A stretch of DNA of 64,000 bases from Myxococcota bacterium (GTDB taxonomy: Bacteria > Myxococcota_A > Polyangia > Nannocystales > Nannocystaceae): contig JBCCHT010000024.1 in assembly GCA_039028615.1 (NCBI GenBank), positions 128,001-192,000 of the forward strand, written 5' to 3'. The translations under genes were made by a program, and so were the position numbers. This document shows positions 708-13,184 of this stretch, in pieces; the stretch's first letter is position 1; each line of letters starts with the position of its first letter. The notes under the pieces are model-generated. The model did no database searches, had not been told where the DNA came from, and saw only the letters and a list, made by a program, of their open reading frames with translations.

Positions 708-858
708 CGGGTCCAGGGTACGTCGACGGCGGATTCGACAGGGGGCCCAATGCGGGCGGGTGCGGCGTCCAGCGTGACGCGCGAAGACGGTGTTTTGCGT
801 CCGCACGAGGAGCGTGGTTTTCGGTACGATCAGAAGCCCCGTTGCCGGGGACGACACC

Positions 859-3684
859 GTGGGCCGATCCGACGAGCAATCCACCCCGGCCGCGGCCTTG
901 GGCAAAGCAGCCACGGTTGCAGTCGAGTCGGGGAGTAGGGGAGTCCCCTCGCCACCGAGCGGGGACGACATAACGTTGCTCGATGGCGAGGCGCCTCGCT
1001 TCGAGCCGATGCTGGATCTGCAGCAGCTCGGTCGTTACACGATCATGAGCGAGCTGGGCCGGGGGGGTATGGGTTCGGTCTACGAAGCCTTCGATCGCAA
1101 CCTCGATCGGCGGATCGCGGTGAAGGTCCTGCACCGCGACGTGGGCTGGACCCACGCCGAGCGGCTGCGCCGAGAGGCCCAGGCGTTGGCGCGGCTGTCT
1201 CACCCCAACGTGGTCCAGGTCTACGAGGTCGGCGAGGCCAAGGGGCAGACCTACATCGCCATGGAGCTGGTGGAGGGGCAGACCCTGCGGCAGTGGGCCG
1301 AACGGCAGCCGCGACCCGGGTGGCGAGAGTGCGTGGCCGTCTACCTGCAGGCGGGCCAGGGGCTCTCGGCCGCGCACGACGAAGGCCTGGTGCATCGCGA
1401 CTTCAAGCCGAGCAACGCGGTGATGGACGGCGAGGGGCGGGTTCGCGTGCTCGACTTCGGCCTGGCGCGCGAGGTGGGAGACGACAGCGAGACCTCGCCG
1501 CACGAAGGGGTGGACCCCGCCACGCCGCCGCCCTCCGAGGCCTTGTCCGCGCTGGATACCCCCCTGACCCAGACCGGCGTGGTCATGGGGACGCCCGCCT
1601 ATATGCCGGTCGAGCAGCTGCGCGGGCAGGATGCCGACGCCCGCAGCGATCAGTTCGCGTTTTGTGTCGCGCTATACGAGGCGCTGTACGGCGAGCGGCC
1701 CTTCGCCGGGCACTCCACGGCCGCGCTGATGCTGGCGGTCGGAGGTGGTGACATTCGGCCTGCGCCGCGGGGGCACGGGGTACCGACCAAGCTGCGGCAG
1801 CTGATCGTTCGAGGCCTGGCGGCGGCGCCCGAAGATCGCTGGCCCACCACCGACGCGCTCTTGGTGCAGCTGCGGCGACTCGTCGCCCCTCGGACGCGGC
1901 GGTGGCTGATGCTGGGGCTGGCGGGTGGCCTCGGCCTGGCCGGGGTGGGTCTGTCGCAGTACGCGGCGGTCGGTTTTCGTTGCGATGGCGCGCGTCGCTT
2001 GCTCGACGGGGCCTGGGACGCGGAGCGCCACGAAGCGGTCGGTGCCGCGATCACGGCGACGGGGATCGAGCACGCGGCCGAGACCTGGCCACGCGTGGAG
2101 CAGCGGCTCGATGCCTATGCCGATGCGTGGGTGGCCAAGCAAACCGAGGTCTGCGAGTCGACCCGCGTGACCGAGCAGCAGAGCGAGTCGCTGATGGAGC
2201 TTCGCATGGCCTGCTTGTCCACGCGGCGGGTGGCCTTGCGCGAGACCACCGAGGTGCTGGCCAAGGCGAACGCGGCGCGGGTCAACCAGGCGCTGAACCT
2301 GGTCGACAGCCTCCCGAGCCTCGGTCGGTGTGACGACGTGGAAGCGCTCGCGGCCGAGGTTCCGCTCCCCGAGGACCCCGCCGTCGCGCGCGAGGTGGAG
2401 ATGCTGCGCGAGCAGCTCGATCGCGCCCGGCTGCTCGCGGTGGTGGGCGAGTTCACCGAAGGGCTGCAGGTCACCGAGCGCGTCGTCGCGCGGGCGGACG
2501 CGCTCGACTATGCGCCCCTACGCTCGGAGGCGCTGCTGCGGCGGGCTCAGCTCTACGATGCGGCGGGGCGCTACACCGAGGCCTACGACGACACCGAGCG
2601 CGCCTACCTGCTGGCGGTCGAGCATCGACACGAGACGGTCGAGCTGGCGGCGGTCACCGAGCTCATCCATGCGGTGGGCGAGCGGCAGTCGAAGCCCGAG
2701 GCGGCGCTGCAGTGGAGCAAGACCGCGCTGGCCTTGGCGCGCGAGCCCCTCGATAGAGCTTCGGTCCTCGCGCGGGTGGGGTCGATCTACAAGGACCAGG
2801 GGAAGCTGGACGAAGCGCTCGACCATCAGCTGCGGGCGCTGGCGATCCGCGAGGAGGCGCTGGGCCCGGAGCACCCCGCGGTGGCCAGCTCTCTCAACGG
2901 AGTGGCGGCGATCCTGCGACGCCAGGGCAAGCTGGACGAGGCCCTCGAGCATCACCGTCGGGCGCTAGCGATCCGCGAGGCGGCCCTGGGCCCCCGGCAC
3001 CCGATGATCGCCAGCTCGCTCAACAACATGTCCAACGTGCTCGTGCAGAAGGGGCAGACGACGGATGGGCGGCTCGCCCTCGAGAAGGCGCTGGCGATCC
3101 GCGAAGAGACGCTCGGGCCCACGCACCCCAAGCTCGGTACGATCTTGAGCAACCTTGGAGAGCTGTTCGCCAAGGAGGGAGACTACGCGGGCGCGCACGT
3201 CATGTACGCGCGCGCTCGGGCGGTGATGCGCGAGGGCTTGGGGCCGACCCACCCCCGGTTGTTGTGGGTGATCTTCGGGACCGCCGAAGCCTACGAGCTC
3301 GAAGGGCGGCTCGGCGAAGCGGCGGAGCACTACGCGCTCGCGCTCGACGGGTGGGAGCAGGTCCGCGGGCACCAGCATCCCGACGTGGTGCCACCGCTGC
3401 TGCGCCTGGCGGTGGTCGAGCTGGCGCGGGGAGACGAAGAGGCGGCACGAGAGCATGCCCAGCGGGCGCTGACGATCCGGGAGTCGGGCGAGACCGACGC
3501 GGGGTCGATGGCCGAGGCTCGTTTCGTCGCCGCCCGGGCGCTATGGGGCCTGTCCGAGCAACGCGGCCGGGCGCGGGCGCTGGCGGAGCTGGCTCGCGGT
3601 ACCTACGGTGGGCTCGAGCGGGCGACCGAGCTCGCGGAGGTCGAGACATGGCTGGCCGAGCACATGCTCGAGCCGAGCCCGTGA
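859..3684 (+). CDS. Membrane Ser/Thr protein kinase with C-terminal TPR repeats
   Basis: [21 protein letters not shown] and GTPAY motifs, a TM segment, a Cys-containing domain, and 42-aa LGxxHPxxAxSLNN TPR units. Start uncertain (ORF open from 790; GTG 859 chosen). Confidence 0.92.
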
Positions 3685-3775
3685 TGCGCTGCTGGTCGTC
3701 GTAAGGGGAACGCTTGGGCGCGGGACCGAAGGGCAATCCACTGGGCGGGGGGTGCCCCAGTTCAGGTCGAGCGCT

Positions 3776-3791
3776 TGTGAAATATTTCATA
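3776..3791 (+). promoter_or_regulatory. CRP-type binding site TGTGA-AATATT-TCATA upstream of the Crp/Fnr gene
   Basis: 9/10 match to TGTGA-N6-TCACA, inside a longer imperfect palindrome (3770-3797). TACGTT -10 candidate at 3814-3819 and GTG start at 3826. Confidence 0.75.
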
Positions 3792-3825
3792 GGCGCTTCA
3801 CTGCGCCCTCGTTTACGTTGAGTGG

Positions 3826-4503
3826 GTGAGCGATTCGCTCCACGCCGTGCTCTCGGCACTGTGGCTGTTCGAGGACCTCACCGAGGCCGAGTTCGCGACG
3901 CTGCTGCAGTCGATGCAGATTCGGACCTATCGCTCCAAGGAAGTCATCGTCAAGAAGGGCGGCCCCGCCGACGGGCTCTACGTGATCCTCGATGGGCACG
4001 CCAAGGTCTCGTCGCAGAACAAGGAGGGCTGGGACACCGCCTTCTCCGTGATGGGGCCCAACGAGGCCTTCGGCGAGATCGCCCTGCTCGACGGTCAGCC
4101 GCGCTCGGCCACGGTCACCACGATGAAGGCGTGCCAGGTCGCGTTCATGCCCGTGTCGACCTTTCGCCACCTGCTGATCGAGTCGCCGACCATCGCGGTG
4201 AAGCTGCTGGGGGTCTTGGCCAAGCGGGTACGAAGGCTCAGCCAGAACCTCGAGGATCGCGATGCGCTCGGGGTCCGCGAGCGGCTCGCCAAGCAGCTGT
4301 TGTCCTTGGCCGAGTCGAGCCCCGAGGGGCTGATGGTCGATCTGTCGCTGTCGCAGCAAGAGCTCGGCGACCTGGTGGGCGCGACGCGGGAGAGCGTGAA
4401 CAAGCACCTGCGCGAGTGGCAGAAGCAAGGCTTCATCGAGCAGCGCCGACGCGCGCTGCTGCTGCAGGACGTCCAGGCGCTGCGGTCGCTGGCCGGAGGC
4501 TGA
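3826..4503 (+). CDS. Crp/Fnr family transcriptional regulator (cNMP-binding domain + HTH)
   Basis: Phosphate-binding cassette FGEIALLDGQPRSATV and HTH SQQELGDLVGATRESVNKHL. Confidence 0.95.
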   Translation: MSDSLHAVLSALWLFEDLTEAEFATLLQSMQIRTYRSKEVIVKKGGPADGLYVILDGHAKVSSQNKEGWDTAFSVMGPNEAFGEIALLDGQPRSATVTTMKACQVAFMPVSTFRHLLIESPTIAVKLLGVLAKRVRRLSQNLEDRDALGVRERLAKQLLSLAESSPEGLMVDLSLSQQELGDLVGATRESVNKHLREWQKQGFIEQRRRALLLQDVQALRSLAGG

Positions 4504-4518
4504 GCTCGGGCACGTCGC

Positions 4519-5283
4519 TCAGCTCAGGTCGAAGACCTGGCCGCACTGCACGAAGCCGAGGAAGCCATCGGCGCGGGCGTCGGGTAGCTCGCCCGTCTGG
4601 TAGTGGTACAGCCACATCTTGGCGCGGGTCTCCTCGGGCAGCTCGCGCAGCTCTTCGTAGTGCGCATGCACGCCGGTCTTGTAGGGCGTGGTCTCGCAAT
4701 CGTGGAAGATGAGATCGCTCGATTGCAGCGACGGCCACAGGTGATCCGGCTCGAAGCGGGTATCGGTGGTGATGAGGGTGGAGCGCTCGTCGATGATCTG
4801 CAGCCCGTAGCTGTGGACGATGCGATCGGCACCGCGCACGTGGATCGTGGGGACGAGGCGGACGTGGTGGCCGCACCATTCGAAGCCGCCGCCGTCGGCG
4901 ATGGGGTGGACGTCGAAGAAGGTCTCGAGCGTCGTCTCTTTGTCGCTGACGTGCCCCATACCGCCGCGCAGCGTGTTCTCCCACAGCGGCTGCACGAGCG
5001 ACTCACTGATGAACAGCCGCGGCCGCTCGCAAACGGGATCGAAGTACGTGGAGAAGCCCAGGTACTCGAGGCCTCCCGTGTGGTCGGCGTGCAGGTGGCT
5101 GATGTACAGATCGTTGACGTCGCGGTGGCTACGGCCCGCGGCGGCGAGCGAGCGCGGCAGGTCGGTCCCCGCGTCGATCAGCATGGATCGGTCGCAGCCG
5201 CTGCCGTGCAGCAGCATGTTCGACTGAAAGTTGTCTGCGCTCGAGGAAAACGCGGAGCCCGAGCCCAGGAACATCAGCTTCAT
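4519..5283 (-). CDS. MBL-fold metallo-hydrolase, Apyc1-like cyclic nucleotide phosphodiesterase
   Basis: GSGSAFS, LIDAG, SHLHADHTGGLE, LWENTLRGG, IFHDC, GVHA and LYHY, in the same order and at a similar length as anti-Pycsar Apyc1-family enzymes as I recall them. Confidence 0.85.
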   Translation of the reverse strand: MKLMFLGSGSAFSSSADNFQSNMLLHGSGCDRSMLIDAGTDLPRSLAAAGRSHRDVNDLYISHLHADHTGGLEYLGFSTYFDPVCERPRLFISESLVQPLWENTLRGGMGHVSDKETTLETFFDVHPIADGGGFEWCGHHVRLVPTIHVRGADRIVHSYGLQIIDERSTLITTDTRFEPDHLWPSLQSSDLIFHDCETTPYKTGVHAHYEELRELPEETRAKMWLYHYQTGELPDARADGFLGFVQCGQVFDLS

Positions 5284-5317
5284 GAAGACAGCCTAGGAGA
5301 GGCGCCCTCAACACCGT

Positions 5318-5333
5318 TATGAACCCGTTCACA
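5318..5333 (-). promoter_or_regulatory. CRP-type binding site TGTGA-ACGGGT-TCATA upstream of the MBL hydrolase
   Basis: Plus strand reads TATGAACCCGTTCACA. Half-sites are identical to the box at 3776-3791, with the same 34-nt gap to the start codon. TAGGCT -10 candidate lies 6 nt before ATG 5283. Confidence 0.75.
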
Positions 5334-5425
5334 GTGGGGGTGTTTTTGTGGGTTCTTTCGGGGCCGGCTTCCACATTTCGGCGCCGGTCTCGCCCGTTCT
5401 GGAGCAAGACCGGCGGCGGGAGGAC

Positions 5426-6694
5426 TCAGTCCTGCCCGCAGACGAAGGCGAGCTCGTTGCGGAGCAGCTCTTCGCCGTCGGGGATCGAGTCACCGTCGGC
5501 ATCGGTCGCGCTGCCGTCGCTGACCGCGACCTCGGTGAGCACGAAACCGTTGGTGATCACCCGCTCGGACTGGGTCACCAGGATGGCGCCCGGCCCCGCG
5601 ATCGCGTCGTTGAACCGGCCGGCGACGAAGCCCCCTCCCGCGAGATCCAGCTCGTCTCCGTTGTCGGCCCAGATGTCGTTGTACATCAGCGGGTCGGGGA
5701 AGGTCTCGAGGTTCGAGAACAAGTCGACGGGGCTCGCCGTGTCCGGGTGGATGAGCTGGGGCGCGTCGAACGAGGCCGAGACCAACACGCCCAGGGTGTC
5801 CTGCATCTCCGCGTCGGAGTCGAGGTTCCAGAACCCGAAGATCAGGCGGCCCCCCGCGTTCACCCAGTTCTGCAGCCGGGAGCGGGTGCTGTCGGGGACC
5901 ACGGTGAAGTTCGAGGGATCGTCGATGATGACGACTTGGAACCCGCCGGCATCGAAGGCGTTGTTGAAGTCGACGTCGCTGTTGGTGGAGATCGCCGTGA
6001 AGCCGAGGGCCGCGGCGGCGTCTTCGGGAGCGGTGGAGCCGAACCCGCTGCCCGTGCTGCCGTTGAAGATGAGGGCCGAGGCCACCACCTGGCAATCGAG
6101 CGTGGCATCGCAGACGTCGGCGGTGCATCCGAGCCCGTCGTTGCAGGCGGTGTCGTCGGGGACCGACTGGCAGCTCGTGCTGGTGTCGCAGGTGTCGACG
6201 GTGCAGGCGACCCCGTCGTCGCACAGCGAGTCGTCGGGAATCCCGATGCATCCGCGGGTGGGGTCGCACATATCGGTGGTGCAGGGGATGCTGTCGTTGC
6301 AGCGGTCGTCCGAGGCGGTGCTCGAGCAACCCATCACCGCGTCGCAGCTGTCGATCGTGCAGCTGACCCCGTCGTCGCAGGCGTCGTCCGAGGGGCTGTT
6401 GACGCAGGCCCCGTCGACACACTCGTCGGTGGTGCAGGCGACCCCGTCGTCGCAGTCCTTCGCCGTGCTGCACTCGCCACCGGTCGGGCTCGCCGTCGTA
6501 TCGCCCGTGGCCGGGTCTCCGGTCTCCTCCTCGGCCGCCGTCGAGTCGCCGGGTGTGCCGGTCGTGCCCGTCGCGTCGGTCGTGCCCGTACTCGCGTCGG
6601 ACTCCGAGATGGGCGGCGGGTTGAACGTGCAGGCCAGACCCGCGGAGATCAGCAGCAGCGCGCCGTGGTGGCGAAAGGCAGGGTTAGTCTTCAC
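5426..6694 (-). CDS. Lipoprotein with Cys-rich CDDGxxCTxDxC repeats and a C-terminal globular domain
   Basis: Lipobox-like AGLAC, Thr/Gly/Asp linker, five C[DN]DxxxCTxDxC repeats, C-terminal DADGDSIPDGEE (Ca-binding-like). Start taken as GTG 6694. Confidence 0.8.
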   Translation of the reverse strand: MKTNPAFRHHGALLLISAGLACTFNPPPISESDASTGTTDATGTTGTPGDSTAAEEETGDPATGDTTASPTGGECSTAKDCDDGVACTTDECVDGACVNSPSDDACDDGVSCTIDSCDAVMGCSSTASDDRCNDSIPCTTDMCDPTRGCIGIPDDSLCDDGVACTVDTCDTSTSCQSVPDDTACNDGLGCTADVCDATLDCQVVASALIFNGSTGSGFGSTAPEDAAAALGFTAISTNSDVDFNNAFDAGGFQVVIIDDPSNFTVVPDSTRSRLQNWVNAGGRLIFGFWNLDSDAEMQDTLGVLVSASFDAPQLIHPDTASPVDLFSNLETFPDPLMYNDIWADNGDELDLAGGGFVAGRFNDAIAGPGAILVTQSERVITNGFVLTEVAVSDGSATDADGDSIPDGEELLRNELAFVCGQD

Positions 6695-6867
6695 TGCCAA
6701 ACGATGCCACCGCCCGCGGCGATGGGATGTCAGCGGCCTTACCCCTGCTCCAGCACCGAGCCCGGTGGCGCATCGGCGCATTCGCGCATGGGTCCATTTG
6801 GATCCTGAGATTCGTATTGCGCTGCTACGAGTGGGAGTTTGACGTGTGGTCGAGGGTGGGTCCGAAC

Positions 6868-6913
6868 AAAAATGGCCGCCAGCGATCCGGGGTTTCCCGC
6901 ACCACTGGCGACC
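6868..6913 (-). terminator. Putative intrinsic terminator
   Basis: Minus-strand stem GGTCGCCAG...CTGGCGGCC followed by a T5 tract (AAAAA at 6868-6872), about 60 nt downstream of the 6975 stop. Confidence 0.5.
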
Positions 6914-6974
6914 GCGCCTCGTCACTCGGTCGACGGTCTCCCCACCGCGACGAGAGGACGGACTCGCGCCCTAC

Positions 6975-7961: not shown

Positions 7962-8582
7962 TCAAATCCGGCGACCGAGTGCACGGGCGATGGCTTCGAG
8001 ATCGCCTTTGACCGCGGAGGCATCGGCCGGGGCTACGAGCGTGGGCAACACACCCTCGAGCGCCCGGCGGGCCCGGTGGAGCCGAGTACGGGCGGTGGTG
8101 GGCTCGACCTCGAAGACCTCGGCCAGCTCGTTGGCGCGCATACCTTCCCAGTAGTGCAGTTCCAGCAGGGCTTGCTGCTCGACCGGCACCCGCTGGAGCG
8201 CGCTCAGTAGCAGCCCGTGCTGTTCCTCGGCGGCCAGGGCCGAGCTGGGCGAGCGCCCGAGCGCATGGATCGAGGACACCCCGGCATCGAAGTCCCGCTT
8301 GGCGTCCTTGCGGGTGCGGTCGCGCAGGTGCTTGAACAGCTGGCGACGGGCGATCGCAAACAAGAAGGTGCGGAAGCTGGCGTCCCCGCGGAATCGCTCG
8401 GCCGACTCGATGCAGCCCATGAAGGTGGCCTGCACCAGGTCCTCGAACTCTTCGCTGCTGACCTTGTTGACGAAGAACCGACGGACGGCGGGGAAGTGGC
8501 GGCGGAACAGGGTGTTGCCCGCGTCCTTGTTTCCCTCACGCCAGGCTTCGAGCAGCCCCGCGTCGGTCTCGGCTTCGGTCAT
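7962..8582 (-). CDS. ECF RNA polymerase sigma factor
   Basis: Region 2 EDLVQATF...FRGDASFRTFLFAIARRQL and region 4 LLELHYWEG...ELAEVFEV...TRLHRARRAL. Confidence 0.92.
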   Translation of the reverse strand: MTEAETDAGLLEAWREGNKDAGNTLFRRHFPAVRRFFVNKVSSEEFEDLVQATFMGCIESAERFRGDASFRTFLFAIARRQLFKHLRDRTRKDAKRDFDAGVSSIHALGRSPSSALAAEEQHGLLLSALQRVPVEQQALLELHYWEGMRANELAEVFEVEPTTARTRLHRARRALEGVLPTLVAPADASAVKGDLEAIARALGRRI

Positions 8583-8608
8583 CCCCACAACGTAGCAGGC
8601 ATCGAGCG

Positions 8609-11600
8609 CTACCGCCGTTGGCACTCGCCGTCTCCCCGCCAGGACTCGATTTCGCCGAGGACTCCGGGGTCTCCTTCACCGTGCTCGGCAAAGAAGGCGC
8701 TGGCCTGCTCGAGGAGTCGACACGCCCATGCTCGATCGCCGCCGAGCTCGGTGGGTGCCTGCAGCAGGGCTTTGGCGAGGGCAACGCGGGTCTTGGCGAG
8801 GTCCGCCGTGGGTGCTTGCTGGGCTCGCGCGGCCTCGGACAGCGCGAGGGGCTCGAGCGCGTCGGCCGGCCGCCCTGCGTCCACCAGCGTCTCCCCGAGG
8901 GTCGAGTACGCGGTCGCAACGAGCGGGTGATTCGGGTAGAGCTTGGCCCTGAACACGCTCACCGAGCGCCGCAATAGGCTCGCGGCTCGTTCGTAGTCCT
9001 CGGTCGTCTGGTGGAGCTGGCCGAGGTTGTGAAGCACCAGGCCCAGGTGTTGGTGGGTGGGCCCAAGGGTCGATTCCAGGATGGGGATCGCTCGGAGGTA
9101 CGTCGCCTTGGCTTGCTCCGGTTGGTCCTTCGCGGCGTAGGAGTTGCCGAGGTTGACCAGGGTGCCCGCGAACTTCGACGTGTCCTGCTGGCCTGCCGCT
9201 TCCATCGTGGCCAGGGCACGCTCGTTGAGCTCCAGGGCCTCGTCGATGTTGCCGAGCAGCTGATGGGCCGAGGCGAGGTTGTCCAGCCCGGATACGGTGG
9301 AGGAGTGCCCCGCCCCGTAGGCGGCCTCGAGGATCTGCAGCTCTCGCTCGGCGAGCGGGAGGGCCTCGGCTGGCTGCTGAAGGGTCAGGTAGTAGGTCGC
9401 CAGGTTGCCCACGGCGATGGCGATGTCGGGATGGTCGGGCGGCAGCGCTCGCGTGCGAATCTCGAGCGCTTGCTGTCCAGCCTCGAGCGCAGCGTCGTAG
9501 CGGCCTTCCTGTGCGTTCGCGGCCAGGAGGCGGTCGAGGGCCGCAGCGACGGTGGGGTGAGTGGGGCCGAGCAGCTGCGTATCGAGCTCCAGCCCTCGTT
9601 CCATGAGCTCCCGCGCTCGGGTCGGGTCGCCCTTGCTGCGGTACGCGTTGCTGAGGTCGCCGAGCATGCGAGAGATGAGCCAATGGTTCGGGCCCACCAC
9701 GCGCTCGTATAGGGCCTTGGCCTCGGTGGCGTGGGCGATCGCGCCCTCGGGGTCACCGAGGGCGAGCGTCACCAGTCCCTGGTTTCGGAGGTATCGCGCC
9801 TTGCGGAGCTGCAGGGGGTCGCCTGCCTGCACGCGCACCGCTGCGCTCAGCTCGGCCCAGTGCAGGGCTCGCTCCGGGCGCTGCTCCTTGTGCAGCATCA
9901 AGGTGGTCAGCTCGCTGGCTGCGTCTTCGGCTGCCCCCCAGGCGCTCGCCCGCAGGGCCAGCATGAACGCCTCTTCGCCCAGCATCGCCGCTTGCTCGTA
10001 GTCCCCGATCTTGGTGGCGAGCTCCGCCCGAGTCGCCATCACCTCGGCCGTCAGCGGCGGCCAGCCCAGGTCTCGGGCCCGTTGCAGCGCCTGCCGAGCC
10101 GTCGCTTGCCCCCGTTCGTAGCGCCCGCCGGCCGATTGTGACTCGGCCTTCGACAAGAGCTTGCGGACGGCGACCGCCTCCTCGCGGAGCTGTGACGCGG
10201 GGATGGGCATGGTGGACAGGAACTCCTCGAGGGTGCACAGCTCGACGGGAGTCAGCTTCGTCGCCATGAGCACGGCCCCGTTGGCGACGCTCCGGTCGGC
10301 CGTCGACAGGGTCCCCACCAGCGCATCGAACTCGAGGCGTCGTTGCTCGAGACACCACTTGGCCTTGTCGAGATCGTCGCGGTCGAGGCTCCCGTCCACG
10401 ATGGTCGCCTGGCATGCGGCTTCGTTGTGCTCGTTCCACGCGCGGGCATAGTCGTCGAGCGCGGGGACGGTCTGGTCTGCCACCGTCTGCGCATCGTGGA
10501 GGCCGGTCTCCATGAACACGTCCCGCAGGCCCTGCCCGATGTCTTTGTCCCAGATCTCGTCGATGGCGTCGCCGTGTTCGATGCAGGCTTCGGTGTCGAG
10601 CCGTTGTTGGCGCTGCCGCTGCACCTCGACGCCCCACCGCGCCAACGCGACCGCCGAGGCGGCCAAGACCGTGACGCCGGCCCACAGTCTTCGACGGCGT
10701 CGTCGTGCACCTCGGCGCAGCGCCTCGGCCAGCGCCCGCATGCTCGGGTAGCGATCGTCGGGGCGCAGGGCCATGCCTCGGGCCAGCACCCGGCGCACGT
10801 AGGGCGGGATCGACGAGGGCCCCGAGGGCAGGCGCCCCGCTTCGATTGCGGCGATCCGCTCGGCATTGGTCGAGCCCTCGAAGGGGCGGACGCCGAACAG
10901 CGCCTCGAAGAAGGTGACGCAGAACCCGAACTGATCGCTGCGAGCGTTGGCCTCCCCGTCGAGCTGCTCCGGGGCCATATAGGCCGGAGTGCCCACGATG
11001 GCGCCCGTGCGGGTCAGCGAGGTGGGCTCGGGGTCGGGCGCGCTTCCCTTTGGGTGCTCGGTCGTTCGCTCCGAGGGGGGACGGGCCAGGCCGAAGTCGG
11101 CGAGGCGGAGGCGACCGTCGGCCCCCAGAAGCATATTGGCTGGCTTCACGTCGCGATGGATGACCCCGACCGCATGCGCGGCGGCCAGGCCATCGGCGGC
11201 CTGCAGCGCCATCACCAGCAGCTCGCGGGTGCGGGCCGAGGTCAGCTCGGGGCGATCGAGACACCACTGCCGGAGCGTGCCGCCGTCCACGTGCTCCATG
11301 GCGACGAACCACTCGGAGCCGTCCATGCCCGCGTCGTGGATCGTGACGACGTGGGGATGGTTGAGGCGGGCGAGCATCACCGCCTCGCGCTGGAGTCGGG
11401 CGTGGGTCTCGGCGTGGACCCCCGACAAGACCTTGACCGCGACCTTGCGGTCCAGCAGCGCATCGTGGGCGAGGTACACCATGCCCATGCCGCCGTGGTC
11501 CAGGGGCTCGACCACCACGAAGCGGCCGATGCGAACCTCCGGGGCGCGGCCGAAGAGGCGATCTTCGATCCGGGACTGCTGACGCCGCCCTTCGACCCGC

Positions 11601-11635
11601 AGCTTGGGCGTCTCCCCTGGATCGGTGGTGTCCAT
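8609..11635 (-). CDS. Membrane Ser/Thr protein kinase with TPR repeats
   Basis: GGMG, VAVK, HRDVKPAN, DFG and GTPAYMAPE motifs, a TM segment and a TPR array. Confidence 0.93.
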   Translation of the reverse strand: MDTTDPGETPKLRVEGRRQQSRIEDRLFGRAPEVRIGRFVVVEPLDHGGMGMVYLAHDALLDRKVAVKVLSGVHAETHARLQREAVMLARLNHPHVVTIHDAGMDGSEWFVAMEHVDGGTLRQWCLDRPELTSARTRELLVMALQAADGLAAAHAVGVIHRDVKPANMLLGADGRLRLADFGLARPPSERTTEHPKGSAPDPEPTSLTRTGAIVGTPAYMAPEQLDGEANARSDQFGFCVTFFEALFGVRPFEGSTNAERIAAIEAGRLPSGPSSIPPYVRRVLARGMALRPDDRYPSMRALAEALRRGARRRRRRLWAGVTVLAASAVALARWGVEVQRQRQQRLDTEACIEHGDAIDEIWDKDIGQGLRDVFMETGLHDAQTVADQTVPALDDYARAWNEHNEAACQATIVDGSLDRDDLDKAKWCLEQRRLEFDALVGTLSTADRSVANGAVLMATKLTPVELCTLEEFLSTMPIPASQLREEAVAVRKLLSKAESQSAGGRYERGQATARQALQRARDLGWPPLTAEVMATRAELATKIGDYEQAAMLGEEAFMLALRASAWGAAEDAASELTTLMLHKEQRPERALHWAELSAAVRVQAGDPLQLRKARYLRNQGLVTLALGDPEGAIAHATEAKALYERVVGPNHWLISRMLGDLSNAYRSKGDPTRARELMERGLELDTQLLGPTHPTVAAALDRLLAANAQEGRYDAALEAGQQALEIRTRALPPDHPDIAIAVGNLATYYLTLQQPAEALPLAERELQILEAAYGAGHSSTVSGLDNLASAHQLLGNIDEALELNERALATMEAAGQQDTSKFAGTLVNLGNSYAAKDQPEQAKATYLRAIPILESTLGPTHQHLGLVLHNLGQLHQTTEDYERAASLLRRSVSVFRAKLYPNHPLVATAYSTLGETLVDAGRPADALEPLALSEAARAQQAPTADLAKTRVALAKALLQAPTELGGDRAWACRLLEQASAFFAEHGEGDPGVLGEIESWRGDGECQRR

Positions 11636-11712: not shown

Positions 11713-12963
11713 CTACCAGCCGGGATAGCTGCACACGGCGGGGGTGCGGGTGGGCGACAGCTCGCAGGTCAGGCCGTTGCAGACCAGGCCCTCGGTGCAC
11801 AGCCCACCGTTTTCACAGTCGTCGCCCTCGCCTCCAAGAGGCCAGCAGAAGCCGTTGGGGCAGTAGCCGCTGTCGCATTGGTTGTGCCCCGAGCACATCT
11901 CCCCGGTGAGGATCGGCTCGTTGCAGGTGCCCTCCGGATCGTCGGCGCTCGCCAGGCACCACGAGCCCGGCGCACAGGTGCCGAACAAACAGGTCTCGCC
12001 CACGACGGGCAGCGCGACGCAACGGTCGGTCTGGAAGTCGCACGTCGCACCCGCGGCACAGTTGCCGCCGATGCACTGCTCGCCCGCGAGCGGGACCGAG
12101 CGGCACACGTCGTTGGAGCACAGCAGGCCATCTTCGCACGGGTTGTTCGCGCAGGACTGACCGATCGCTACTTGGCTCACGCAGCTGCGGTTGTCCCCGG
12201 TCTCGCTCCAGCGGCACAGCATGTCGTTGCCGCACTCTTCGTGGTTGATGCACGACTCGCCTTCGGCGCGAACGGGGACGCACAGGTCCTGGCTGCGGTC
12301 GCACCACAGGCCGGGGACACAGTCACTGATGCCGCAGAACTGACCCTCGGTGGACGCGGTCTGGCAACGGCCGGTGTCGAAGCTGCAGTACAGGCCGTCG
12401 GCGCAGTCGTCGAAGAAGCCGATGCCGAGCTCGGTGTTGGAGCAGGTCTCCCCTTGGGCCCGCCCGCCGAGGCTGGAGCAGGGCGTCACGCAGTTGCCCG
12501 CGGAACAGAGCAGGCCTTGCTCGCAGTCGGAGACGAGCGCGTCGAAGCTCTCGCAGCTGTCTCCGAGGGCGCGCTCGCCGTGATAGATGGCGCAGAAGCG
12601 GTCGCAGACTCGGGCCGACCCGTCGACGATCCATCCGCAGCCTTGCTGCTGGATGTCGGCGGCGATCGAGTCGAAGCACTCCGCGTCGTAGGTCAGCTCT
12701 TGTTCGTCACCGAGCCGGAGCCGGTGCTCCCACAGATCGCTCAGCTCGGTGTCGCAGGAGCTCGGGGTCGTGCCGAACTCGCAACTGCACGCCGCGACCT
12801 GCTCGCAGTGGTCGGCGATCAGGTCCTCGACGGCGGATGCCGACGGGGCCTCGACGCCTTCGATGGGGCCGGGATCGCTGACACCGACGGGCGCTTCGCA
12901 GCCCGCCGCGACCACCACCATGGAGGCCAACGACCAGCGCGCATACCTCTGCAACCTAAGCAT
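11713..12963 (-). CDS. Cys-rich repeat lipoprotein
   Basis: VAAGC lipobox and many GExC...CxxGLxC repeats typical of myxobacterial surface proteins. Start 12963-12978. Confidence 0.82.
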   Translation of the reverse strand: MLRLQRYARWSLASMVVVAAGCEAPVGVSDPGPIEGVEAPSASAVEDLIADHCEQVAACSCEFGTTPSSCDTELSDLWEHRLRLGDEQELTYDAECFDSIAADIQQQGCGWIVDGSARVCDRFCAIYHGERALGDSCESFDALVSDCEQGLLCSAGNCVTPCSSLGGRAQGETCSNTELGIGFFDDCADGLYCSFDTGRCQTASTEGQFCGISDCVPGLWCDRSQDLCVPVRAEGESCINHEECGNDMLCRWSETGDNRSCVSQVAIGQSCANNPCEDGLLCSNDVCRSVPLAGEQCIGGNCAAGATCDFQTDRCVALPVVGETCLFGTCAPGSWCLASADDPEGTCNEPILTGEMCSGHNQCDSGYCPNGFCWPLGGEGDDCENGGLCTEGLVCNGLTCELSPTRTPAVCSYPGW

Positions 12964-13184
12964 CAAGTCAAGCATCATGGGGCAAAGATGAGGCATGGCC
13001 GGGGAGGGAGCAAGCGTGGCCGTGGCGGCTCGGGCTTCCCGCTGACCGAGGACGGCCGGCGTTGGCCGTTCGACTCGCTGAAGCACGGTTCGTCTCGACC
13101 GTCCCGAGCCGGTACGCCATGGGGCGCCCCCGGCTGCCGATCGCCTGCGTAAACTCCGCGCTTGCGTCGGGCTTCAAGTAGTTT

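Follow-up and report, generated by a model that had tools for sequence, protein, structure and literature searches.

Introduction

CpdA is a class III phosphodiesterase. In Pseudomonas aeruginosa, its gene is activated by the cAMP-loaded CRP-family protein Vfr, as stated in PMC6363681 with reference to Fuchs 2010, and the logic by which a sensor induces the eraser of its own signal is already known from this system. Here, we describe a gene pair at positions 3,770 to 5,333 of a 64-kb stretch of DNA from a Myxococcota bacterium (contig JBCCHT010000024.1; the whole stretch of 64,000 nucleotides is called the window below). The pair encodes a CRP-family regulator that is expected to sense a cyclic mononucleotide (cNMP) and an Apyc1-family hydrolase of the metallo-beta-lactamase (MBL) fold, and each gene is preceded by a CRP-type box. 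As with Vfr and cpdA, a CRP-family cNMP sensor is predicted to induce a phosphodiesterase that degrades the sensor's own ligand, which would give homeostatic negative feedback. The two systems differ in that CpdA belongs to another phosphodiesterase family than the MBL-fold enzyme of the window, and in that Vfr is a global regulator whose gene does not lie beside cpdA, whereas here the two genes form an adjacent, co-inherited pair, apparently without another target.

The closest described relatives of the enzyme are the chromosomal Apyc1 homologues, which, according to PMC9117128 and PMC11724313, share with it the family, the HxHxDH di-metal site and the catalytic Glu. Some of these bacterial copies lie next to cyclases, and it has been proposed in the same two papers that they regulate housekeeping cNMP signalling. 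Unlike the published homologues, the enzyme gene of the window has a dedicated cNMP-sensing regulator and an operator (both predicted). The main texts of the two papers make no mention of a transcription factor or of CRP (0 occurrences in the latter), and in the main texts of the Apyc1 and phosphodiesterase literature that was searched, no Apyc1-family gene was found to have a CRP-family regulator and an operator dedicated to it. Phage Apyc1 (SBSphiJ; PDB 7T28, 7U2R, 7U2S) has the same fold and catalytic residues, and the copies of Bacillus phages are 30-36% identical to the window enzyme; unlike them, the latter is not phage-borne, and no Pycsar cyclase or effector lies nearby. A setting of anti-Pycsar counter-defence was not found either, as the flanks consist of genes for Ser/Thr kinases with tetratricopeptide repeats (TPR), for repeat proteins and for an extracytoplasmic function (ECF) sigma factor, and PADLOC returned matches only at the level of the cNMP domain. 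In the main texts of Hobbs et al. 2022 (PMC9117128) and Tesson et al. 2024 (PMC11724313), the role of the chromosomal homologues is left open, and the module described here makes that question testable.

On the side of the sensor, Mycobacterium tuberculosis CRP (Rv3676) and Corynebacterium GlxR resemble the regulator in the type of their recognition helix, RE-(S/T)-V-N-K, and in a canonical phosphate-binding cassette. They are global regulators, they share only about 35% identity with the protein of the window, and they differ from it at the position of Escherichia coli T127, where the regulator has Leu. CRP proteins that, like the module, are wired locally to cNMP metabolism are described in PMC10187061, which gives Rhodospirillum centenum CgrA as a cGMP-activated CRP and Sinorhizobium meliloti Clr as a cAMP/cGMP one. 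According to this source, cgrA shares its operon with two genes for guanylate cyclases and is preceded by the CAP-type box TGTGAactgctTCACA, the spacer of which is the same as that of the Burkholderiales boxes discussed below, read on the opposite strand. CgrA is linked to cyclases (feed-forward) and not to a phosphodiesterase, and has RT where the regulator has RS; the two are likened here by description only.

Promoter geometry and co-inheritance of the gene pair

The regulator and enzyme genes are convergent, with 15 nt between their stop codons, and each has a TGTGA-N6-TCATA box and a TAnnnT hexamer in its own orientation (Table 1). Direct reading of the sequence together with a script reproduced every coordinate in the initial annotation, which had been made from the letters of the window, including the boxes, their 34-nt spacing, the hexamers and the gap between the stops. 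An in-frame TAG within the promoter elements closes each open reading frame (ORF) on its upstream side, so neither start codon can lie further upstream. Neither promoter has a purine-rich Shine-Dalgarno sequence or a -35 element, and the search for a sigma-70 consensus promoter between 3600 and 5500 of the window was negative, which fits the expectation for activator-dependent promoters. A search for sequencing runs that contain the stretch gave a single DNA run, possibly the one from which the assembly was made, and no RNA run. In a repeat search, the two promoters were alike in the box only and otherwise dissimilar, and no inverted or direct repeats were found to flank the gene pair.

The same arrangement of elements recurs in another phylum. 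Relatives of the enzyme were collected as the best 80 loci, to which one locus was added from a search of 301 genomes of the same proteobacterial order; the closest (54-58% identity) belong to metagenome-assembled beta- and gammaproteobacteria. A regulator orthologue (49-51% identity, E <=2e-56) lies directly upstream of, and divergent from, the enzyme gene in 16 of the best 80 loci, and the locus from the search of 301 genomes is the 17th. In all 17, TGTGA stands at the same place before the enzyme gene and is followed by 21-22 nt, TAnnnT, 6 nt (7 in L050) and ATG. Both promoters of the window have this geometry, so that the hexamer keeps its distance of 6 nt (7 in L050) from the start in 19/19 promoters. 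The full TGTGA-N6-TCATA is present in 15 of the 17 loci, where one box faces the enzyme gene in an intergenic region of 58-66 nt and the hexamer reads TAGACT, TATATT or TAAACT. In the other two, L050 and L138, the box in this position is degenerate (TGTGA...TGATT or TTATT), and a perfect TGTGA-N6-TCACA lies 7 nt further upstream. With the first base of the start codon as the reference point, the box is centred at -42.5 in the window, L054, L108, L050 and L138, and at -41.5 in the remaining 13 loci.

Enzyme loci that lack the regulator also lack this promoter: none of 64 has a box at this spacing, and two of the 64 have a box with at least 9/10 matches within 200 nt at any spacing. When nine promoters, including both of the window, were aligned, the only invariant columns were TGTGA, TT.AT, TA...T and the start codon, with the spacer free to vary. 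In a maximum-likelihood tree, the window enzyme is sister to 16 regulator-linked enzymes (SH-aLRT 98), and the regulator link requires one origin on the enzyme tree. The regulator, the box, the promoter geometry and the enzyme gene are thus co-inherited across two phyla. Their wiring differs, as the divergent proteobacterial genes share a single box, whereas the convergent genes of the window have one box each. The link between regulator, box and phosphodiesterase that had been proposed from the window is strengthened by this co-occurrence in 17 loci of another phylum, and the geometry fits the class II, leaderless design that had been proposed with it. Judged from these sequences, the regulator very probably controls the enzyme gene through the box.

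Table 1. Positions of the genes and promoter elements in the window, and of two groups of related loci.
Feature	Position	Strand	Details
Regulator gene, CRP family	3826..4503	+	GTG start, 225 aa; stop codon 4501-4503
Enzyme gene, Apyc1 family	4519..5283	-	ATG start at 5283, 254 aa; stop codon 4519-4521
CRP-type box TGTGAAATATTTCATA	3776..3791	+	before the regulator GTG, 34 nt gap; sequence read and script
CRP-type box TGTGAACGGGTTCATA	5333-5318	-	before the enzyme ATG, 34 nt gap; sequence read and script
-10-like hexamer TACGTT, regulator gene	3814..3819	+	22 nt past the box, 6 nt to the start codon
-10-like hexamer TAGGCT, enzyme gene	5295-5290	-	22 nt past the box, 6 nt to the ATG
Imperfect palindrome AGCGCT-TGTGAAATATTTCATA-GGCGCT	3770..3797	+	encloses the regulator gene box; repeat search: 15-nt arms, 87% complementary
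Inverted repeat in the inter-stop spacer	4499..4523	.	7-bp arms GCTGAGC/GCTCAGC, 11-nt loop, stop codons inside the arms; sequence
Two-box intergenic variant	L050 3142-3180; L138 2203-2240		downstream geometry unaltered
Cyclase-linked loci (L058-L062, L065-L072, L074, L075, L082, L087, L090, L092, L094, L095, L098, L106, L109, L113, L116)	~2850-3600 each		

The proposed circuit and its sign

In the mechanism that we propose, the ligand-loaded regulator would bind TGTGA-N6-TCATA ahead of each gene. The box would stand at the position of a class II activator (centre -41.5 or -42.5) if transcription begins at the start codon, as is suggested by the TAnnnT at 6 nt and by the lack of a Shine-Dalgarno sequence and of a -35 element, and the regulator would recruit RNA polymerase to these leaderless promoters. 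The induced Apyc1-family phosphodiesterase would then hydrolyse the cyclic nucleotide and so switch the regulator off, closing a negative feedback. In the window only, the regulator's own box would add positive autoregulation and sharpen the response to a pulse or reset. Not all parts of this proposal are equally firm. That the regulator acts through the box as an activator is predicted with reasonable confidence. We also lean, a little less firmly, towards a self-contained two-gene cNMP module in which the loaded regulator would bind both boxes and activate both promoters. For autoactivation of the regulator in the window genome, which is predicted because a box with this geometry also precedes the regulator gene, we consider the chances to be about even.

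Several points speak against the proposed circuit. The class II, leaderless interpretation is based on geometry alone, and the same site would repress if transcription begins upstream of the box. None of the promoter-proximal half-sites follows the consensus; they read TCATA, TGATT or TTATT. All 17 supporting loci are metagenome-assembled. They form about five sequence groups, with ten loci near-identical in the intergenic region, and therefore count as far fewer than 17 independent witnesses. Further CRP-like proteins are encoded in the genome of the window, where the regulator has 15 matches (several of them full length and some with the cNMP domain only), and a myxobacterial Apyc1 homologue, that of Archangium, is described in PMC11724313 as having weak or no cleavage activity. 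Finally, the shared box of the proteobacterial loci lies 8-17 nt from the regulator start codon, so that a bound dimer would be expected to hinder transcription of the regulator gene there. As read from the sites, the positive loop that the initial annotation had proposed is specific to the window arrangement, and autoactivation is not conserved across the module's loci; the divergent and convergent arrangements probably differ in the sign of autoregulation.

It is important to consider the opposite sign for both genes, namely that the regulator represses them and that transcription starts upstream of or within the box, giving mRNAs with leaders. The shared box before the regulator start in the 17 proteobacterial loci is at a repressing position for that gene, and CRP-family proteins can repress when bound over or downstream of a promoter, as described in PMC10187061. 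Repression of both genes is nevertheless unlikely. In the nine aligned promoters, conservation is limited to a TAnnnT at a constant 6 nt from the start and a box that precedes this hexamer by 21-22 nt, no promoter-like site was found upstream in the window, and the divergent loci would need an enzyme promoter inside the regulator coding sequence. The same three parts in two wirings, one divergent with one box and one convergent with two, constitute a natural rewiring experiment in which the effect of switching autoregulation can be compared. Reduced to box, a gap of 21-22 nt, TAnnnT, a gap of 6 nt and start, the promoter might also be used as a small leaderless part for expression in response to cNMPs.

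The enzyme and its substrate

By its sequence, the enzyme is a chromosomal Apyc1-family MBL-fold cyclic-mononucleotide phosphodiesterase, in agreement with the family first given to it. It matches the Pfam family Apyc1 (PF23023) with 82.9 bits against a cut-off of 50. Its three best matches among solved structures are 7u2r, 7u2s and 7t28 (E 9e-31 to 1.9e-23), of which the first two are named Apyc1 and the third was deposited as a putative metal-dependent hydrolase, and the alignment with 7u2r (E 9e-31) spans residues 2-251 with small gaps only. RNase Z structures follow at E 0.017 or worse. The residues H63, H65, D67, H68, E73, H148, D174 and H206, which comprise the HxHxDH motif, further metal ligands and the catalytic Glu, are identical in 81/81 members of the clade; the role of the Glu is taken from E74 of SBSphiJ Apyc1 in PMC9117128. 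Purified bacterial Apyc1 homologues, including those of Thalassospira, Legionella and Synechocystis, are reported in PMC11724313, where the ones with an intact loop cut cAMP, cGMP, cCMP and cUMP. These three genera are also found among the 45-48% identical relatives of the window enzyme, the match to the assayed proteins being at genus level only.

The feedback would be lost if the hydrolase did not cut the regulator's ligand and acted instead on RNA, 2',3'-cNMPs or a lactone, in which case the two genes would merely be co-regulated. MBL-fold enzymes are functionally diverse, weak NCBIfam matches to RNase Z and lactonases were obtained for this one, and some Apyc1 homologues with an altered loop are almost inactive on cNMPs according to PMC11724313. 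We regard such a substrate as quite improbable, because the Pfam match exceeds the curated cut-off, the three best solved relatives are of the Apyc1 family with RNase Z far behind, the metal ligands and E73 are all invariant, and members of the clade adjoin cyclases or cNMP receptors in 52/80 loci.

The genome holds a second Apyc1-like gene, 36% identical to the first, at 69977-70801 of contig C56 (L131). It falls into a separate clade (support 96) formed by the matches from relatives of the bacterium, and 35 of the 36 other genomes of the same family that were searched have a match.

The regulator and the rarity of the box

The identity of the regulator that had been read from the window is borne out by Pfam, which assigns it a cNMP-binding domain (PF00027, 74.5 bits, residues 33-117) and a Crp-type helix-turn-helix (PF13545, 67 bits, residues 152-221; PF00325, 27.8 bits). 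Among solved structures, those of M. tuberculosis CRP are closest to it (E 2.7e-33). The recognition helix noted at the outset, RESVNK, is present within GATRESVNK and aligns with RETVGR of E. coli and RETVNK of M. tuberculosis, so that the R, the E and the final basic residue of E. coli CRP are kept; the last residue may be Lys in CRP proteins (PMC10187061). G83, E84, R93 and S94 align with the phosphate-binding residues G71/E72 and R82/S83 of E. coli CRP, and the roles of the aligned E. coli residues, in phosphate binding and in the recognition helix, follow the description in PMC10187061. The phosphate-binding cassette FGE...PRSA and the helix GATRESVNK are invariant in 10/10 orthologues, and the N-terminus aligns from residue 1 with nine orthologues.

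The box is rare. TGTGA-N6-TCAYA occurs at two places in the window, which are the two promoter boxes, against a mean of 0.04 in shuffled sequences, and the whole genome (12.27 Mb, 68.3% GC) has four TGTGA-N6-TCATA sites and one palindromic TCACA site. A scan for the box at the same spacing, which the initial annotation had put forward as a check, was run over the genome for the full geometry (a box with at least 8/10 matches, 20-23 nt, TAnnnT, 5-8 nt, a start codon and an ORF of at least 100 aa). It gave six matches, and a 10/10 box within this geometry proved unique to the two promoters described here, with none at nine and four at eight; the reversed genome, used as a control, gave 0 matches.

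These counts bear on whether the boxes could serve another CRP-family protein, such as a global regulator, with the neighbouring regulator gene being just one more of its targets. Candidates exist among the 15 CRP-like matches in the genome, several of which are full length, and sites similar to TGTGA-N6-TCACA are recognised by many CRP proteins (PMC10187061). Against this, the box tracks the adjacent regulator across phyla (17/17 loci with it and 0/64 without it at this spacing), five such sites in 12.27 Mb are too few for a global regulon, and no further promoter in the genome with the full geometry exceeds 8/10 box matches; we give this explanation only a slight chance. Mere coincidence of the two boxes and their spacing, for which it can be said that 2 of 100 window shuffles reach two matches to the bare TGTGA-N6-TCAYA, is effectively refuted by the rarity of the box in the genome, the identical geometry at both genes, the unique scan result with its empty control and the conservation in 17 loci.

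Outside the window, the third TGTGA-N6-TCATA site, TGTGAATCATTTCATA, lies at 101035-101050 of contig C18 (L129 3036-3051), where the start of a gene for a LysR-type regulator directly adjoins it and a zinc-dehydrogenase/quinone-oxidoreductase gene follows at 58 nt. The latter gene has TACGTT 7 nt ahead of its ATG, with a spacing unlike that of the module. The fourth site, on contig C27, stands beside ORFs without Pfam matches. A wider regulon comprising these two sites was considered and rejected; neither has the promoter geometry, and they are not counted as targets. The sole perfect TGTGA-N6-TCACA palindrome of the genome, TGTGAGATAAATCACA, is at 92121-92136 of contig C49, in a strikingly AT-rich stretch 1.4 kb from the contig end.

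Which cyclic nucleotide is the signal

As already noted for the window, no cyclase is visible near the module: a search for class III cyclase domains, the one class covered, found none on the window's contig. The genome has six such domains, all on other contigs, in which the substrate-specifying position is occupied by Lys (three), Glu (one), Gln (one) and Arg (one). The signal is most likely cAMP or cGMP, predicted to come from one of these six unlinked cyclases.

The nucleobase-contacting pair of E. coli CRP, T127/S128, is not kept in the regulator, which has Leu138/Ser139, or in its orthologues, which have Leu/Thr. The presence of Leu at the T127 position does not exclude cAMP, because the cAMP-binding protein SYCRP1 likewise has Leu there, as described in PMC10187061. 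The same protein rules out the use of this Leu as a marker of cGMP, which we had considered.

The gene neighbourhoods of the enzyme relatives provide a further indication. Within 4 kb, a class III cyclase is found in 29/80 enzyme loci, a gene for a cNMP-binding domain in 33/80, and one or both in 52/80. In 26 of the 80, mostly cyanobacterial, a class III cyclase gene with the motif GTIDEFMGDG lies directly upstream on the same strand (Table 1). The cyclases of L059 and L094 are CHASE2-cyclases by Pfam, and that of L059 matches Synechocystis Cya2 (PDB 2W01) with E 4.8e-90. The exchange E488K, which affects the same Glu as in GTIDEFMGDG, converts the guanylate cyclase Cya2 to an adenylate cyclase, as stated in PMC5995499. 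In 9 of the 26 cyclase-linked loci, a cNMP-binding-domain gene is present downstream too, either stand-alone or, in L094, fused to an MscS channel, and the cyclase, Apyc1-like and cNMP-binding genes together make a candidate cGMP writer-eraser-reader cassette. The clade that holds all 26 cyclase-linked enzymes (37 rows, 11 of them without a cyclase) is sister to the regulator-linked clade, with a support of 91. This position suggests a candidate cGMP phosphodiesterase partner of Cya2 in the sister clade, and for the module it may be taken as a lead towards cGMP. It goes no further than a lead, because the assayed Apyc1 homologues are described as broad-specificity enzymes (PMC11724313, PMC9117128) and the Leu at the T127 position is shared with SYCRP1.

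A bolder version of the proposal, which is speculative and which we rate as rather doubtful, is that of a portable, self-resetting cGMP switch. An ancestral divergent one-box homeostat, in which the sensor would repress itself and induce the eraser, would have been rewired into a convergent twin-box pulse generator, in which the sensor would induce both. If true, a cellular Apyc1-family enzyme would for the first time have a transcription factor dedicated to it.

The Glu-type cyclase of the genome is a 673-aa hybrid of receiver, class III cyclase and histidine kinase with the motif GTIDELIGDA, encoded at 22294-24315 of contig C38 (L132 3794-5815). Being the only one of its type in the genome, it is a candidate cGMP source for the module.

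Distribution and origin

Related myxobacterial genomes had been suggested at the outset as the place to look for conservation, and the outcome there was negative: the gene pair is not conserved, and no orthologues were found to compare. Among 60 relatives, there is no enzyme orthologue, and the best match is 37-39% identical and of another clade; the relatives' matches span 30-39% identity and form the separate clade that includes the copy on contig C56. Among 40 relatives, there is no orthologue of the regulator, the best match being 37% identical. A further 400 genomes of the phylum contain no orthologue, with 0 enzyme matches at E <=1e-40. The pair is sparse even in the proteobacterial order, where a regulator orthologue was found in 5/301 genomes. 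No close copy of the enzyme was found on 50,697 phage or 72,556 plasmid records, and a metagenome scan with the regulator gave only two distant matches (20-22% identity).

Since the search of genomes from the same phylum yielded no orthologue of the regulator or of the enzyme, it is likely that the module was acquired horizontally. The window enzyme branches beside the proteobacterial clade and not within it. The GC content of the gene pair is about 65-67% against about 70% in the flanks, a difference too small for composition to be used as the sole argument for transfer. A clean insertion, sought by synteny, could likewise not be delimited, as the downstream repeat-protein gene alone was matched, in a single genome of the same genus (G002), and the neighbourhood differs there.

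Neighbouring genes and further sites

The spacer between the two stop codons contains an inverted repeat (Table 1), possibly a weak bidirectional hairpin. As a functional element, this putative hairpin was discarded, its folding being no better than that of shuffled sequence (z -1.3 and -1.5). A weak terminator-like hairpin of six pairs with a T-run lies at 5324-5347 on the plus strand of the window and overlaps the enzyme gene box; it would lie where any antisense read-through that crosses the enzyme gene from the regulator gene comes to its end. By chance alone, 0.9 sites of this kind would be expected in the region.

The region is flanked by genes for two large Ser/Thr protein kinases with C-terminal TPR arrays, at 790-3684 (+) and 8609-11635 (-). 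Between them lie the ECF sigma factor gene, at 7962-8624 (-), and a gene for a cysteine-rich repeat protein, at 5426-6925, and a further cysteine-rich repeat protein is encoded at 11713-13086 of the window.

In the Burkholderiales-type loci of the regulator-linked set (L046-L049, L053, L055-L057 and L063), a gene for a 765-aa protein is convergent after the regulator gene (937-3234 in L047). The protein combines a pair of cNMP-binding domains with an NTE P-loop-like domain and a patatin phospholipase domain. Five of the nine loci, L047 (6347-6997), L049, L055, L057 and L063, also encode a second CRP-like regulator, about 31% identical, on the far side of the enzyme gene at a distance of 1.5 kb. 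Another conserved box of the CRP type, [A/T/G]GTGAnnTnnnTCACA (mostly AGTGAACTGnTTCACA), is present in L046-L049, L052, L053 and L055-L057, about 550 nt downstream of the enzyme gene (for example, at 5372-5387 in L049) and before a small ORF without Pfam matches. This box, which is perfectly palindromic in L049 and L052, indicates that the regulon may be larger in the genomes concerned.

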